The notes under the pieces were generated by a model. It worked only from the letters and a program-made list of their open reading frames with translations, was not told where the DNA came from and did no database searches. Source: Alphaproteobacteria bacterium UBA6376 (GTDB lineage Bacteria; Pseudomonadota; Alphaproteobacteria; Rs-D84). Taken from it: 64,000 nucleotides of DNA. The stretch lies in assembly GCA_002437665.1 (NCBI GenBank), contig DJQW01000001.1:65304-129303 (forward strand), in the 5' to 3' direction. Below are positions 1,333 through 56,764 of the stretch, piece after piece (position 1 is the first letter of the stretch; each line of letters starts with the position of its first letter). The position numbers and the translations under genes are program-made.

Positions 1333-1731
1333 TTATTCTTTCATACATGCTGTACAAGCATTAATAATCGAACCAGATGCAACTGGACAACATGTCTTAC
1401 ATACATCTGCATCACACGCCTTGGCGCAATACCAACGCTCTTCGCTGGTGGTGTTGCACGAACCATACATTGTTGTTACATATCTGTGATTTGTCGTATC
1501 GTGGGTTGTACCTGATGTACGTTTGCAGGTATCGGAATAATTCGTCCACCCTGATGGACAAACGTCCTCCAACACTGAATAACACGCCGCCAACGAACAT
1601 TTTTTTGCACACTCAGACGACGATGTATAATAAAGTTCAAGTTTAGTACCCGGATCTAATGGATCCAATGCCGCCGCAAATGCGCACGGCATCATGACCA
1701 GCATCAGTGGAATCGCAAACAGTTTTCTCAT
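1333..1731 (-). CDS. small secreted cysteine-rich protein (hypothetical)
   Basis: Start refined to MRKLFAIPLMLVMMPCAFAAA, a signal peptide. About 15 Cys in the mature region. Preceded by GGGGGTGTGAA-ATG. Confidence 0.5.
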   Translation of the reverse strand: MRKLFAIPLMLVMMPCAFAAALDPLDPGTKLELYYTSSSECAKKCSLAACYSVLEDVCPSGWTNYSDTCKRTSGTTHDTTNHRYVTTMYGSCNTTSEERWYCAKACDADVCKTCCPVASGSIINACTACMKE

Positions 1732-1875
1732 TTCACACCCCCATGTGTTGTTTTTCACAAACAAAAAACCACCGAAACAATTCAGGTGGTTGGAGGTTCG
1801 AAACAATTATCAAGAATTGTGTGCCTATTCAATATATTCAGCCACCCTCCAACCGCTTGGTTGGGGGTGACGGCA
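1732..1875 (-). promoter_or_regulatory. structured 5' leader (large hairpin plus terminator-like hairpin) upstream of the Cys-rich secreted gene pair
   Basis: On the minus strand: GGTTGGAGGGT, a loop of about 45 nt, AACCTCCAACCACC, then CCACC..GGTGG plus a U-tract, then GGGGGTGTGAA ATG. The same architecture occurs at 21167-21320. Confidence 0.45.
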
Positions 1876-2039
1876 CAAGAAAACAAAACATCGCAAGGAC
1901 GCAAATCCATGCGATGCCGAAATCTCTACCGTCTGTATTTTATGCCGCACTTGTGCGGTCATCTTGATAAAGGGTTTCGACACCCCGCCAATGGAACACC
2001 CACCGGCAAAAGAATACTAGAATAAAAAGAAACTGGACA

Positions 2040-2280
2040 CAAGGGAAAAATGTTTTGTGCCGATTATGAATAGGCAAATTTGAATAAATTAGAATGGTGG
2101 TAGATATGCGAGAGGCGGGTTGCGTAGTGTCAGCCGACCGCGAATAAATTAGAATGGTGCAGATGACACGTGGGGCGGAGAATCAGCCGATTATGAATAA
2201 ATTAGAATGGTGGTATCTATGCGTGAGGCGGGTTGCGTAGTGTACAATCAGTTACATGAGCAACCCGCGTCGCACATAGA
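2040..2280. repeat. array of short repeats with embedded palindromes (non-CRISPR)
   Basis: Three copies of gaataaattagaatggtg at about 57-58 bp spacing. gccgattatgaata occurs twice. The intervening segments resemble each other (gcg(a/t)gaggcgggttgcgtagtg). A long hairpin ggtatctatgcgtgaggcgggttgc...gcaacccgcgtcgcacatagatacc. Confidence 0.7.
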
Positions 2281-20518: not shown

Positions 20519-21166
20519 TCAGAACGTATATCTCAATCCAAAATCAATGCTATATGCCCCCTGCAAATCGGCCTTGGCTGATGCATTCAAACCAATAAAC
20601 GTCAGCATTACATTCCACCCAAACCCATTGATTGATGTTTCACTAACCAGACCTAATTTTAATACGCCCATAGCCCCATCATCAGAAACAGAATCTTCAT
20701 ATGTATAATAATAACTTTTTGCTTTTGCTGTTTCGTGCAACCACGAATGTCCAACACCAACTGAAATTAAAAAATCTGAACGCGGTTCTGAATCACCAGA
20801 CAAACGAATATAATTATCATAAGAAAAATAAAGTGTGGTCAAATCCATTGTTCCTTCAAACGTGGAATTGTCATACCAATCTGAACCATTTACAACATCG
20901 CCCAACGTTGGCATATATGACAATGTTGCCGTAACACCACCATTATAAATATTTTCACGTTCTCCAAAACGCATACCACCAGATACAGACAACGCAACAC
21001 CGCCGCTATCATCTTCAAACGTATCATCATCAATAGAATCATTTATATCATCAGAAAATGTTGGGCCGGCATAGCCAATATTTGCACCCACAAACCATTT
21101 CAAATCCGCCATTGCAGGCATTGTCAGAATTGATAACAATCCTGTTGTTAAAAATAACTTTTTCAT
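20519..21166 (-). CDS. outer-membrane beta-barrel protein (OmpA-like/OmpW-like barrel domain)
   Basis: Signal peptide MKKLFLTTGLLSILTMPAMA. Alternating hydrophobic beta strands. C-terminal ...GLRYTF with terminal Phe. Start refined to MKKLF. Confidence 0.6.
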   Translation of the reverse strand: MKKLFLTTGLLSILTMPAMADLKWFVGANIGYAGPTFSDDINDSIDDDTFEDDSGGVALSVSGGMRFGERENIYNGGVTATLSYMPTLGDVVNGSDWYDNSTFEGTMDLTTLYFSYDNYIRLSGDSEPRSDFLISVGVGHSWLHETAKAKSYYYTYEDSVSDDGAMGVLKLGLVSETSINGFGWNVMLTFIGLNASAKADLQGAYSIDFGLRYTF

Positions 21167-21320
21167 TTCACACCCCGTTCGTGCTTTATTAAATAAAAAC
21201 CACATTGGAATACCAAAGTGGTTGGAGGTTGAATACTATTATTTACGGAATAGTGTCGCTTATTCTGATATATCGCGACCCTCCAACCATCAAATATGAT
21301 TGGAGGTGTTTTTTGTCCCC
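21167..21320 (-). promoter_or_regulatory. structured 5' leader (same architecture as 1732-1875)
   Basis: Minus strand: CCTCCAATCA..TGATGGTTGGAGGGT, a loop of about 47 nt, AACCTCCAACCAC, then CCAC..GTGG plus a U-tract, then GGGGTGTGAA ATG. Confidence 0.45.
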
Positions 21321-21419
21321 ACGGACACGTAAATAGAGGGTATTCACACCCTGCACCATTTCTATGGTACACCGTGATTATATTCTATGGCACATTCAAA
21401 TTCCAGATAAAATTTGTGC

Positions 21420-21640
21420 TGATTTCAAAAACAAAAACCGCCCATCAGGGCGGTCTAAATATAAAATAAACTGTTCATTGTGCCGACTGCGCGGGTTTCA
21501 TGCGGCGTAAAAACAAACCGCCCATCAGGGCGGCCTAAATTAAAGAGAACGGTGCAGATGCGCCGATGTCGGCAAGCGTAGTGTATATGTAATACATGAG
21601 CGCGCCGACATCAAGCAGATGTGCCGTTATATTTAATTTA
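21420..21640. repeat. two copies of aaaccgcccatcagggcgg(t/c)ctaaat hairpin repeat plus a palindromic element with gcgtagtgta..tacatgagc core
   Basis: Direct repeats about 100 bp apart. The palindrome cggtgcagatgcgccgatgtcggc...gccgacatcaagcagatgtgccg has a core related to the elements at 2100-2280. Confidence 0.65.
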
Positions 21641-23218
21641 TTCCTTGCGGATTGGGTATTTACCGTCTATCAAATTCTGCCGCACCACATGATGTTTTAC
21701 CTTTTGTGTGCTGGTCATTGGCAGTTCGTCGGTCGTCATGGCAAAGTGCGTTACCCATTTATATGACGCAACCTTTTTGTTCGCCTGTGCAATGGCGGCG
21801 GACAATTTTTCCATTGTCATATCTTTGTCAACGCTGAACACGCCATAGGTCACGGTTTTATCTTTGACCCGATGTTCAAACACGGCAACATTTTTGACGC
21901 CTGGGATTTTCATAAACAGCCCTTCCAGTTCATCTGGATAAACGTTTTTACCACTGTCCAAAACAATCACTTGTTTTTTACGGCCGGCAAAATGCAATTC
22001 GCCGTTTTTGTCCATCGACACCATGTCACCCGTGTTAAAGAATCCGCGTTCATCAAACACCTGTTCGTTGACGGTTGGATTATTCAGATAACCACCAAAC
22101 ACCTGATGACCACGCAGCCACAGAACGCCCACGCCATCTTCGTTTTTATCACGAATTTCGCATTCGTTGTTTGATGTTGGCGCACCAAATGCAAACGGGA
22201 AACGTTTTTTGGTCGGTTTGGAAATACAGATTGGCCCAACGGTTTCTGTCAGACCGTAACCCTGAATAAATGTCAGCCCCAAACGTTCATAGAACTTTTC
22301 CACCTCTGGCTTGGTCGCCGCACCGCCCGCAATCAGCAAACGCGCACGTCCACCAAAGATTTCCAGAACCGGTTTTTGAACCTTGCGCACCAGAAATCCC
22401 AATCCCAGTTTTTCCAATGTTTTTCCGTATTTCAGAACGAACGACGCCATCCACCACATGTGTTTTTCTTTCAGTGCATCGATAATGCGATTTCTGATAA
22501 CCTCAAACAAACGGGGTACGGCCGGAATAATTTGTGGTTTGTACTTTTTGAAATCCGCCATGATTTCTTTTGGATTGACGGTTGGTTGCAACAGCATACC
22601 CGACCCATAGTGCAACGTGGCCAAGATTTCAACTGCGAAACCAAAGATGTGATACATCGGCAAGAAACCATACATGATATCGCCCGCGTTTATCCATTCG
22701 TGCATATCTTCCAATGAATTTGCGCATTCAATCAGGTTAAAGTGTGTAAGCGGCACAACCTTGGGCGTGCCGGTTGAACCCGATGTGAACGACAACGTTG
22801 CAATTTCGGTCGATTCCACCGGCGCGGCGGTCAAATCCGGATTTGGCTTGCCATCTTTCTTGGTAATGTCATAGAAAGTGAATTTGTCTGTCTTGTAAAA
22901 GAATGACTTTTCCGCGCAAACCATTTTGCACTTTGTGATTTCCGCCATATTGTCATATTCAAATGGTGTCAGATTTGTGTCCAGCAACAACACACGTCCG
23001 CCCAAATACCAAATTGCAAACATGGTAATTGGGAATTGTGGTATATTGTGCGACAGCACACCAACAACATCGCCACGTTCAATCCCCGCCGCATGCAGTG
23101 ATGCCGCGCGCGCCTTGACCAAATCCAAGAACGCTGAAAACGTTACTTCTTCGCGAACCAGAATCAAATAATCTGGCCATGTTGCGACTGCCTTTTCCAG
23201 CAGTTGATACATATTCAT
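21638..23218 (-). CDS. long-chain fatty-acid--CoA ligase (AMP-dependent synthetase/ligase family)
   Basis: AMP-binding motif SFTSGSTGTPKVV, an adenylation core and C-terminal TSTQKVKH. Start chosen at MNMYQLLEKA, because the 54 upstream codons look non-coding. Confidence 0.8.
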   Translation of the reverse strand: MNMYQLLEKAVATWPDYLILVREEVTFSAFLDLVKARAASLHAAGIERGDVVGVLSHNIPQFPITMFAIWYLGGRVLLLDTNLTPFEYDNMAEITKCKMVCAEKSFFYKTDKFTFYDITKKDGKPNPDLTAAPVESTEIATLSFTSGSTGTPKVVPLTHFNLIECANSLEDMHEWINAGDIMYGFLPMYHIFGFAVEILATLHYGSGMLLQPTVNPKEIMADFKKYKPQIIPAVPRLFEVIRNRIIDALKEKHMWWMASFVLKYGKTLEKLGLGFLVRKVQKPVLEIFGGRARLLIAGGAATKPEVEKFYERLGLTFIQGYGLTETVGPICISKPTKKRFPFAFGAPTSNNECEIRDKNEDGVGVLWLRGHQVFGGYLNNPTVNEQVFDERGFFNTGDMVSMDKNGELHFAGRKKQVIVLDSGKNVYPDELEGLFMKIPGVKNVAVFEHRVKDKTVTYGVFSVDKDMTMEKLSAAIAQANKKVASYKWVTHFAMTTDELPMTSTQKVKHHVVRQNLIDGKYPIRKE

Positions 23219-23288
23219 CTTACAAATTTCCTTGTTTTTTTTATATTGGACTGCCAGTATTATATAACCAAAGGAAAAGATTGCAAAT

Positions 23289-24059
23289 ATGAAAATTCTG
23301 ACATTAAATATAAATTCAATTCGTGCCCATGCCGAGAGTTTTATTGACATTCTGCGCGCGGGCGAATATGACACAATCATGGTTCAGGAATTAAAGGTCG
23401 AAACCGCCGGATTTCCGCACAACCTGTTTGACGAATACGGCTATAATATCAAGGTTTTTGGCCAAAAGAGTTGGAACGGCGTTGCAACTTTTTCCAAATG
23501 TTCTATCGAAGATGTAACAATGGGTATGCCCACATATTCCGACGTAAACGCACGATTCTTGGAATGCGTCGTCGATGGACGTGTGCGCCTGATAAACGTG
23601 TATATGCCAAATGGCGACACAATCGATTCACCGAAATTCCCGTACAAGATGGAATGGCTGGCGGCATTTACAAAATACATTGAACAATATTTGCATTCCC
23701 CAGAACCCGTTATCGTCGGTGGCGATTTTAACATCGCATTGACAGACCGTGACGTATGGAAACCGGCGAACTATACAAACATCGCCATTGCCGCACCGGC
23801 CGCACGCGCCGTAATGCAATCGTGGATTGATGCCGGCTGGACGGACGTATGGCGCACCATGCACCCAGACGAAATTGCATACACTTGGTTTGGATACCGC
23901 GGTGGCGATACGATTGGCAAAAACATGGGATTGCGGTTGGATTATTTCTTGGCCAATCCCGCGGCAATGCAGATGATTAAAAATTGTGAAATTGATACCG
24001 CACCACGTATGGCGACAAAGCCAACCGATCATTGCGGATTGATGTTGACAATTAAATAA
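23289..24059 (+). CDS. xth: exodeoxyribonuclease III
   Basis: MKILTLNINSIRAH and C-terminal DHCGL are typical of Xth-family AP endonucleases. Confidence 0.9.
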   Translation: MKILTLNINSIRAHAESFIDILRAGEYDTIMVQELKVETAGFPHNLFDEYGYNIKVFGQKSWNGVATFSKCSIEDVTMGMPTYSDVNARFLECVVDGRVRLINVYMPNGDTIDSPKFPYKMEWLAAFTKYIEQYLHSPEPVIVGGDFNIALTDRDVWKPANYTNIAIAAPAARAVMQSWIDAGWTDVWRTMHPDEIAYTWFGYRGGDTIGKNMGLRLDYFLANPAAMQMIKNCEIDTAPRMATKPTDHCGLMLTIK

Positions 24060-36938: not shown

Positions 36939-37025
36939 TGGTGGGAGTGGCTGGATTCGAACCAGCTCAGGCTTAAGCCAACAGATTTACAGTCTGCCCC
37001 GGCTCTCCAACTCCGGCGCACGCCC
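36939..37025 (-). tRNA. tRNA-Tyr (GTA), 87 nt with long variable arm; slightly non-canonical
   Basis: Minus-strand read: GGGCGTG-CG-CCGG-AGTTGGAGAG-CCGG-G-GCAGA-CTGTAAA-TCTGT-TGGCTTAAGCCTGA-GCTGG-TTCGAAT-CCAGC-CACTCCC-A-CCA. Anticodon GTA. One C:U mismatch in the acceptor stem and no U8. Confidence 0.6.
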
Positions 37026-37105: not shown

Positions 37106-37180
37106 TGGTGCGGGCAGCGGGAATCGAACCCGCATTTCAAGCTTGGAAGGCTTGCATACTAGCCTTTGTACTATGCCCGC
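37106..37180 (-). tRNA. tRNA-Gly (TCC)
   Basis: Minus-strand read: GCGGGCA-TA-...-CAAGC-CTTCCAA-GCTTG-AAAT-GCGGG-TTCGATT-CCCGC-TGCCCGC-A-CCA. Anticodon TCC. Confidence 0.85.
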
Positions 37181-54201: not shown

Positions 54202-54275
54202 TGGTGCCCTAAGCAAGAATCGGACTTGCGACTCGTCCTTACCAAGGACGTGTTTTACCACTAGACTATTAGGGC
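54202..54275 (-). tRNA. tRNA-Thr (GGT), with non-canonical T-loop (TCCGATT) and one D-stem mismatch
   Basis: Minus-strand read: GCCCTAA-TA-GTCT-AGTGGTA-AAAC-A-CGTCC-TTGGTAA-GGACG-AGTC-GCAAG-TCCGATT-CTTGC-TTAGGGC-A-CCA. Confidence 0.55.
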
Positions 54276-56687: not shown

Positions 56688-56764
56688 TGGTAGCGGGAGA
56701 GGGACTTGAACCCCCGACACGCGGATTATGATTCCGCTGCTCTAACCAGCTGAGCTATCCCGCC
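56688..56764 (-). tRNA. tRNA-Met (CAT); could instead be tRNA-Ile2 read with lysidine
   Basis: Minus-strand read: GGCGGGA-TA-GCTC-AGCTGGTTA-GAGC-A-GCGGA-ATCATAA-TCCGC-GTGTC-GGGGG-TTCAAGT-CCCTC-TCCCGCT-A-CCA. Confidence 0.7.

Follow-up and report, generated by a model that had tools for sequence, protein, structure and literature searches.

Within the 64,000 nucleotides of contig DJQW01000001.1 of the Alphaproteobacteria bacterium UBA6376 that were analyzed here (hereafter the window), two copies of a leader RNA of roughly 200 bases precede open reading frames (ORFs) on the minus strand, and comparison with homologous sequences suggests that this RNA is quite probably a cis-acting terminator/antiterminator switch in the 5' leader of the downstream gene. 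It represents a previously undescribed RNA family, mechanistically of a known type and unusual in its features, for which more than 230 homologous leaders were collected from metagenome-assembled genomes (MAGs) of gut Alphaproteobacteria (Candidatus Enterousia, order Rs-D84). All coordinates are window positions, and the element and the regulated ORFs are read on the minus strand (Table 1). A preliminary description of the second copy had proposed that a strand c' (GGUUGGAGG) can pair either with an upstream strand c (CCUCCAAUCA) or with a downstream strand c2 (AACCUCCAACC), that c2 overlaps the 5' arm of a U-tract hairpin directly before the Shine-Dalgarno (SD) sequence and the ATG, and that the first copy has an equivalent alternative. 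These pairings are seen on the minus strand, the overlap is present in the sequence (21218-21229 versus 21191-21223), and c, c', c2 and the terminator are all found in copy 1. Moreover, the layout of c:c' versus c':c2 versus c2:terminator in front of the ribosome-binding site holds far beyond the window, as all three helices show compensatory changes in the more than 230 leaders. The extents had to be corrected: 21167-21320 covers only the 3' two-thirds of copy 2, which runs from about 21371 (P0) to 21191, and copy 1, given as 1732-1875, extends from about 2007 to 1763, yielding RNAs of about 190 nt and about 250 nt, respectively. Furthermore, three helices do not make up the whole switch, as the element is larger and contains a second competing helix pair, a:a' versus P3.

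Already within the window the paired pattern GGTTGGAGG..CCTCCAACC has an expectation of 0.00 in shuffled sequences, the 13-mer AACCTCCAACCAC occurs exactly twice, and the fold z-scores of the window leaders are strong (-5.6, -5.2 and -7.2), which together argues that the pairings are not due to chance. The minimum free energy (MFE) fold of copy 1 (-109.1 kcal/mol, z = -7.15) shows the same architecture as copy 2, and both copies carry a hairpin followed by a U-tract as expected of an intrinsic terminator. In a simple scanner's lists the promoter of copy 2 is absent, and so is its terminator, the latter because of an internal mismatch. To collect homologues, genome MAGs were scanned with the pattern GGTTGGAGGG-N28-58-ACCTCCAACCAC, resulting in at least 117 loci, and metagenomes with the pattern GAATATATTGAATAA-N45-75-GTGGTTTT, in which c' and c2 were left free, resulting in at least 120 loci. 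Nearly all genome loci among the matches listed come from MAGs of Alphaproteobacteria from the gut of humans, ruminants, horses and chickens, under the labels Candidatus Enterousia, Alphaproteobacteria or 'Rickettsiales'. Searches with the covariance models yielded 110 and 123 hits, the best E-value being 1e-54; within the window the two copies and nothing else are hit, copy 1 scoring 113.6 bits with model R2 over 1753-2002 and 50.3 bits with model R1.

Alignment of the homologues revealed that conservation extends about 60 nt further in 5' direction than the element of the preliminary description. From 5' to 3' the family consists of a sigma-70-like promoter, the hairpin P0, an e block (GGGGYGU-NNNN-AACCC), a variable strand a, the b hairpin (GUGUCC-GYGG-GGACA), an A-rich linker (J1), c, c', the d hairpin with a GAAUAUAUUGAAUAA-type loop, CUAU-[a']-AUAG, e', c2, the terminator, the SD sequence and the ATG. 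In 113 aligned homologues the promoter signal, TTG..17 nt..TAnAAT, precedes P0 with constant spacing, and the element can therefore be regarded, at the level of sequence evidence, as a 5' untranslated region; a promoter downstream of it, which would have spoken against a switch, is not what the alignment shows. In copy 2 transcription would start near 21370. P0 is present in 103 of 109 homologues and is formed by 67 different stems with a GNRUU loop consensus, the terminator stem is 96% paired, and a U-tract follows in 121 of 123 homologues. Next to structure, also sequence is conserved, namely in the b hairpin, J1, the P0 loop (GNRUU) and the P2 loop.

The covariation supports two folds that exclude each other. 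State A, in which all helices are nested, combines e:e', a:a', b, c:c', d and the terminator, and its four-way junction is closed by e:e' and a:a'. In alignment A4, 93.7% of its cells are paired compared to 34-46% with the partners slid, double changes occur at 38 of 43 pairs, and none of 500 shuffles reaches the observed values. The long-range helices contribute strongly: e:e' is 98.9% paired with double changes at all seven pairs, a:a' is 91.9% paired, and all four Watson-Crick types are found at most a:a' columns and likewise at most e:e' positions. An alignment-free test agrees, cognate 5' and 3' segments pairing with -17.7 kcal/mol and non-cognate ones with -12.8 kcal/mol. The helix c:c', in which wobbles are common, reaches 97.5% pairing on A4 and 94.4% on A6, with double changes at five of eight pairs. 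The local hairpins b (97% paired) and d/P2 (98.8% and 97.6% paired) show double changes at 5/5 and 3/3 pairs, respectively. With RNAalifold on the raw MAFFT alignment, misalignment of the variable a and e segments left b and c':c2 as the only helices detected, and covariance models were used instead.

In State B a three-way junction is made of P1 (c':c2), P2 (d) and P3, to which a local e hairpin and b are added. The counts for this fold come from the metagenome sample, in which neither c' nor c2 had been a selection criterion, and 94.0% of its cells are paired compared to 33-49% with the partners slid (0/500 shuffles). P1 is 97.4% paired with compensatory changes at six of nine pairs, and the local e stem is 93-95% paired and has double changes as well. 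P3 is 81.3% paired with double changes at 4/4 pairs (UA 37, AU 33, CG 12), the stem types including CUAU/AUAG, CAAUU/AAUUG, ACUG/CAGU and GAUA/UAUC. P3 and a:a' use the same nucleotides, a' lying only 0-2 nt from the 3' strand of P3, and from the known geometry of H-type pseudoknots the two should be unable to form together. That both are nevertheless under selection is the signature of a genuine two-state RNA.

The shared strand c' occurs in at least eight types in the unbiased metagenome sample, among them GGUUGGAGG (46), GUUGGAGU (24), GUCAGGAG (21), GUUGGGG (8), GGGGAG (5) and GGCAGGAG (3), and c2 changes in concert with it (CCUCCAACC, ACUCCAACC, CCUCCUGACC, CCCCCAACC, CUCCCCA, CCUCCUGCC). 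The strand c also changes with c', and divergent copies among the genome loci behave alike. Wobble pairs make up about 2% of the cells in c':c2 and about 9% in c:c'. That c2 follows c' by Watson-Crick pairing whereas c tolerates wobbles argues for direct pairing of c' and c2, c2 not merely copying c, and c':c2 thereby stays the stronger of the two helices. Only on this strand are G-U pairs common, and the strand and the orientation of the RNA are thereby fixed.

Several further pairings were considered and dropped. The outer pairs 99:124 and 100:123 of a longer helix d (alignment A3) are not conserved. The single-sequence MFE folds contain a helix between GGGG in the e block and CCUCC in c2; the local e hairpin is preferred to it because the GGAG/CUCC and CGAG/CUCG classes compensate in the local 3' strand and not in c2. 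The palindromic P2 loop AAUAUAUU was considered as a kissing-dimer site, the palindrome not being kept among the copies, and a pairing of the P0 loop with c2 shows, as judged by eye, no co-variation with the c2 variants.

The regulated side of the element is similarly constant. In 108 of 119 cases an SD-bearing ORF in the same orientation begins downstream, at a median distance of 48.5 nt from c2 and about 15-25 nt from the U-tract, a gap so short that it leaves no room for another promoter, and the ORF hence depends on read-through. Of the 108 downstream products, 73 have a signal-like N-terminus and 50 contain at least 4% cysteine, and for most no Pfam family was found. The families seen repeatedly are HTH_3/HTH_31 (XRE-like), OMP_b-brl, the Listeria-Bacteroides repeat and an ABC exporter, and an EcoRI methylase, a superinfection-immunity protein, PAP2 and EamA were found as single cases. 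Among the small XRE-like products a family of about 60 amino acids directly 3' of leaders (M.IGQEIE.IR...S..D.CN......EY..I......P..YQLIMFI) has an XRE/HTH-like N-terminus, and these proteins could belong to a feedback loop.

Taken together, these observations suggest the following mechanism. The leader would be transcribed from its own promoter and act in cis as a transcription-attenuation switch. In State A the 5' module, i.e., a, the b hairpin, the A-rich linker and c, would pair with a' and c', leaving c2 free; the intrinsic terminator would then form with the 3' half of c2 and halt RNA polymerase ahead of the ORF. In State B, c':c2 (P1) would close the three-way junction with P2 and P3 around a', the 5' arm of the terminator being consumed and transcription reading through, and an effector would shift the balance from State A to State B. 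Energetically, c':c2 (-19.2 kcal/mol) exceeds c:c' (-12.3 kcal/mol). In the MFE folds of canonical leaders c' sits on c in 130 of 131 cases and the terminator is formed in 116 of 131, and if the RNA is cut before the 3' arm of the terminator, c' still sits on c in 126 of 131. Forcing c':c2 costs 11.4 +/- 4.4 kcal/mol in a nested model that leaves out a possible e-loop:e' pseudoknot in State B, given which the true gap between the states may be smaller. According to this modelling State A, and with it termination, would be the default, and an input would be needed for read-through.

Some points weigh against this mechanism. In the nested model State A is favored by about 11 kcal/mol, and State B may thus need a strong input to form more than rarely. 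The covariance-model alignments are fitted to the very structure that is counted, and the paired percentages given above are somewhat inflated thereby. Termination, read-through and the transcription start site are all predictions. The tandem arrays of promoter, RNA and terminator without ORFs would also fit independent small RNAs, and a common metabolic theme pointing to a ligand was not found among the downstream genes.

As to the effector, direct sensing of a ligand in the sense of a riboswitch and the action of a protein or RNA factor are equally compatible with the data; about one third of the weight goes to a ligand, about one third to a protein or RNA factor and the rest to other readings. 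As a preferred but tentative guess, the effector might be a small molecule or a ligand of the second-messenger type that binds the State B junction, making the leader an ON riboswitch. Somewhat more speculatively, the three-way junction (P1, P2, P3 and the e-loop pseudoknot) of such an ON riboswitch, which would then be an undescribed class, might bind a global signal, e.g., a second messenger or ion, and control most of the secreted and surface proteome together with small XRE regulators from an estimated one to three dozen sites per genome of about 0.9 Mb, in effect replacing protein transcription factors in the minimal cells of the genome-reduced gut symbionts of Rs-D84 (Candidatus Enterousia). 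With the same architecture, although this is already on the unlikely side, a trans-acting RNA-binding protein or small RNA might instead bind the 5' module (b hairpin, A-rich linker, c) or the P2 loop and thereby lock State A or free c' for c2, as for PyrR, TRAP, ANTAR and PRD. The heterogeneous regulon of mostly exported proteins without a pathway would fit such a factor, as would the sequence conservation of the b hairpin, J1, the P0 loop and the P2 loop and the frequent occurrence of small XRE-like proteins among the targets themselves; moreover, an active factor may be needed because State A is so strongly favored energetically. However, no conserved partner gene adjoins the leaders, none of the Rfam models of PyrR, T-box or other protein- or tRNA-dependent leaders matches, and ligand aptamers, too, typically show a multi-helix junction in which many unpaired bases are conserved.

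It is improbable that the unit is mainly a self-contained gene for a trans-acting small RNA with read-through into the ORF being secondary. Every unit has its own promoter and terminator, and ORF-free arrays of three to five consecutive units exist; however, an SD-bearing ORF that depends on read-through follows closely after the U-tract in the 108 of 119 cases mentioned above, a pure small-RNA gene does not need a covarying antiterminator fold (c':c2, P3), and some array units look degenerate or shuffled. A dispersed repeat or mobile DNA (MITE-, REP- or attC-like), the inverted repeats of which merely resemble helices, is largely refuted. Many copies per genome, inverted repeats and tandem arrays are indeed present, and GTTGGAG and CTCCAAC bear a loose similarity to integron core and inverse-core sites. 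Against this, pairing is kept while the sequences differ, most positions of a:a' and e:e' showing four pair types, the G-U pairs make the signal strand-specific, and orientation and distance to the downstream ORF are constant. Furthermore, variants such as GGUCAGGAGG lack the GTT/AAC triplets that attC requires, and the copies lie among housekeeping genes and not in cassette arrays. In 2.9 million viral contigs (IMG/VR) there is a single exact-pattern match (L238:8519-8589 (+), IMGVR_UViG_3300024303_004416), and a phage origin was discarded for the same observation. Finally, a trp-type attenuator, in which a ribosome on a short ORF over c would choose between c:c' and c':c2, shares the identical 1:2 / 2:3 / 3:4 helix logic and is refuted by the lack of a conserved ORF, since an ORF with SD and ATG runs through c in only 3 of 109 leaders (7 of 109 if GTG and TTG starts are allowed), and no Rfam leader-peptide family matches the element itself.

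Table 1. Features of the two leader copies in the window, and loci of unit arrays and of the family of about 60 amino acids in homologous sequences (locus handle before the colon).
Feature	Position	Strand	Remarks
Copy 2, whole element	~21191-21371	-	P0 through terminator
Copy 2, predicted promoter	21377-21405	-	-35 TGGAAT (21400-21405), 17-nt spacer, -10 TATAAT (21377-21382); read from sequence
Copy 2, P0 hairpin	21352-21371	-	UGUACCAU-AGAA-AUGGUGCA; in MFE
Copy 2, e block	21338-21351	-	GGGUGUGAAUACCC; local hairpin GGG/CCC
Copy 2, e-block loop segment	21340-21346	-	UGAAUAC, complementary to e'
Copy 2, a	21328-21336	-	CUAUUUACG; 5' strand of long-range helix a:a'
Copy 2, b hairpin	21314-21327	-	UGUCC-GUGG-GGACA
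Copy 2, A-rich linker J1	21307-21313	-	follows b hairpin
Copy 2, c	21297-21306	-	CCUCCAAUCA; anti-antiterminator strand, partner of c'; in sequence and MFE; UAUUU loop between c and c'
Copy 2, c'	21279-21291	-	UGAUGGUUGGAGGG; shared strand, partner c or c2
Copy 2, d / P2 hairpin	21255-21279	-	GUCGC-GAUAUAUCAGAAUAA-GCGAC; A/U-rich loop, conserved
Copy 2, P3	21236-21253	-	CUAU...AUAG; local stem, loop contains a'
Copy 2, a'	21240-21247	-	CGUAAAUA; inside P3 loop
Copy 2, e'	21230-21236	-	GUAUUCA; partner of e loop
Copy 2, c2	21218-21229	-	ACCUCCAACCAC; antiterminator with c', 3' part is terminator 5' arm
Copy 2, predicted intrinsic terminator	21191-21223	-	AACCAC-U-UUGG-UAUU-CCAA-U-GUGGUU, then UUUAUUU; in MFE
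Copy 2, SD and ATG	21164-21176	-	GGGGUG 21171-21176, ATG 21164-21166; start of regulated ORF
Copy 2, downstream ORF	20522-21166	-	215 aa, signal peptide, outer-membrane-protein beta-barrel-like
Copy 1, unit with promoter	1763-2042	-	RNA element ~1763-2007
Copy 1, predicted promoter	2014-2042	-	TTGTGT 2037-2042, 17-nt spacer, TAGTAT 2014-2019
Copy 1, P0	1987-2007	-	
Copy 1, e block	1972-1986	-	
Copy 1, a	1963-1970	-	
Copy 1, c	1859-1869	-	CACCCCCAACC; then loop AAGC
Copy 1, c'	1843-1854	-	
Copy 1, d	1821-1845	-	
Copy 1, P3	1804-1819	-	a' 1807-1814
Copy 1, e'	1798-1804	-	
Copy 1, c2	1786-1797	-	
Copy 1, terminator	1763-1791	-	
Copy 1, ATG	1729-1731	-	
Copy 1, downstream ORF	1336-1731	-	132-aa cysteine-rich secreted protein
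Array locus	L149:8436-9391	+	
Array locus	L210:8586-9209	-	
Array locus	L180:33-605	+	
Array locus	L201:5642-6439	+	
Array locus	L126:272-1018	+	
Array locus	L170:7505-8096	+	
Array locus	L134:1-533	-	
Array locus	L085:5543-6146	-	
Family of about 60 aa	L001:938-1120		
Family of about 60 aa	L016:191-373		
Family of about 60 aa	L033:7556-7750		
Family of about 60 aa	L036:7415-7594		
Family of about 60 aa	L097:781-966		
Family of about 60 aa	L149:9403-9591		

The 215-aa product downstream of copy 2 matches Pfam OMP_b-brl with E = 9.7e-06 and 26.3 bits, just under the curated cut-off of 28.7. In copy 1 an insertion of about 95 nt (about 1871-1962, minus strand) with two extra hairpins replaces the short b hairpin, and several metagenome leaders of the GGUCAGGAGG type are expanded likewise at the b position. 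Just upstream of the copy 2 promoter and 3' of an acyl-CoA-synthetase-like ORF (21638-23380, minus strand), two near-identical strong terminator hairpins (CCGCCCUGAUGGGCGG followed by a U-run) are located 80 nt apart at 21435-21456 and 21514-21537 on the minus strand. A 15-nt repeat, CATCTGCACCRTTCT, is found at 2151-2165 and 21546-21560 (minus strand), about 270-310 nt upstream of c' in both leaders; it was dismissed as a leader-linked part, being present in 3 of 121 leaders only, all from the source genome or its orthologue. Upstream of copy 1 there is also a direct repeat, CACCATTCTAATTTATTC, with one unit at 2142-2159 and the other at 2082-2099 (minus strand). Four tRNA genes detected by Rfam on the minus strand (36942-37025, 37109-37180, 54205-54275 and 56691-56764) are unrelated to the leader.

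Candidatus Enterousia, placed in the order Rs-D84 by taxonomy look-up, has genomes of 0.75-1.0 Mb and lacks the TCA (tricarboxylic acid) cycle and respiration (PMC12306168). As the MAG RGIG4808 contains at least six loci and the window two copies per 64 kb, a dozen or more copies per genome are likely. The motif is also contained in two contigs labelled Bacteroides fragilis (CAVGNU010000003.1, L009) and Muribaculaceae (CAZJGX010000108.1, L077), the former carrying a close orthologue of the copy 2 locus, and both are probably mis-binned Alphaproteobacteria. A divergent subtype (L013:1618-1790 and L096:3045-3219, both minus strand) has UCCCGACC / GGUCGGGAU / CUCCCGACC as c / c' / c2 and a different d hairpin without the GAAUAUAUUGAAUAA loop, and scores 27-38 bits with model R1. 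The tandem arrays comprise three to five complete units, each with its own -10/-35 signal and terminator and no ORF between the units, and end before a gene for a small XRE-like protein. The order within some of the inner units looks shuffled; L149, for example, has an a' in unit 2 that matches the a of unit 3.

Should the switch prove real, it would constitute a large new regulatory RNA family in which both alternative folds are visible in the covariation, an unusual property. The leader appears to be the dominant cis-regulator of exported, cysteine-rich and outer-membrane proteins in an uncultured, genome-reduced and little-known gut lineage. The identity of its effector would show what these symbionts sense during surface remodelling, and with it would come a further class of orphan riboswitch or a new kind of RNA-binding antiterminator system. 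Moreover, the bipartite anti-antiterminator and the arrays of three to five units might be useful for understanding and engineering digital transcription control.

In comparison with known families, the search of Rfam 15 (4227 models) resulted in no family on the element, either at the gathering score over the whole window or at E <= 10 over both leader regions, apart from a plus-strand match to NsiR1 (E = 0.12) and a match to MIR1515 (E = 0.7), which were both taken as chance; weak matches to Phe, Leu and Trp leaders and to small RNAs fall on the two upstream terminators (21435-21537) and not on the element. Full-text literature searches for sequence strings, Enterousia, Rs-D84 and riboswitch terms returned nothing on the motif. 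T-box leaders resemble the element in being long (200-300 nt) and multi-stemmed, in their many copies per genome and in their competing antiterminator and terminator helices, whereas the element has neither the T-box sequence nor a specifier-loop architecture, does not match RF00230 at E <= 10 and does not precede aminoacyl-tRNA synthetase or amino-acid genes. The c-di-GMP-I/II (GEMM) riboswitches likewise occur in many copies per genome, some of them in tandem, before surface, secreted and adhesion-type genes; however, the leader has no similarity to the GEMM models, and a link to this ligand is pure analogy.

With the Bacillus pyr/PyrR, TRAP, ANTAR and PRD/RAT systems the leader shares the logic of anti-antiterminator, antiterminator and terminator and also a sequence-conserved hairpin as putative protein site. 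In contrast to PyrR targets it does not match the Rfam model of the PyrR binding loop, and a single b tetraloop hairpin takes the place of the dual hexaloops of ANTAR targets, a reading of the sequence only, as is the comparison with RAT. The enterobacterial trp, his, leu and phe attenuators have the same overlapping helices 1:2, 2:3 and 3:4, the last being an intrinsic terminator, whereas the leader is without a leader peptide, much larger, and contains a four-way junction and long-range helices. Transcriptional riboswitches of the S-box/SAM-I type agree with the leader in the location in the 5' untranslated region, the multi-helix junction, the conserved unpaired bases, the shared strand choosing between an aptamer-side helix and the antiterminator, and the terminator just before the ribosome-binding site; they differ in that the leader matches no Rfam 15 model and that its gene set represents no metabolic pathway. 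Finally, compared to the S-box, pyr and trp leaders, the anti-antiterminator described here is bipartite, a invading P3 and c invading P1, the four-way junction is closed by a long-range helix of about 17-20 bp, both folds are visible in the covariation, and the regulon consists mainly of exported proteins.

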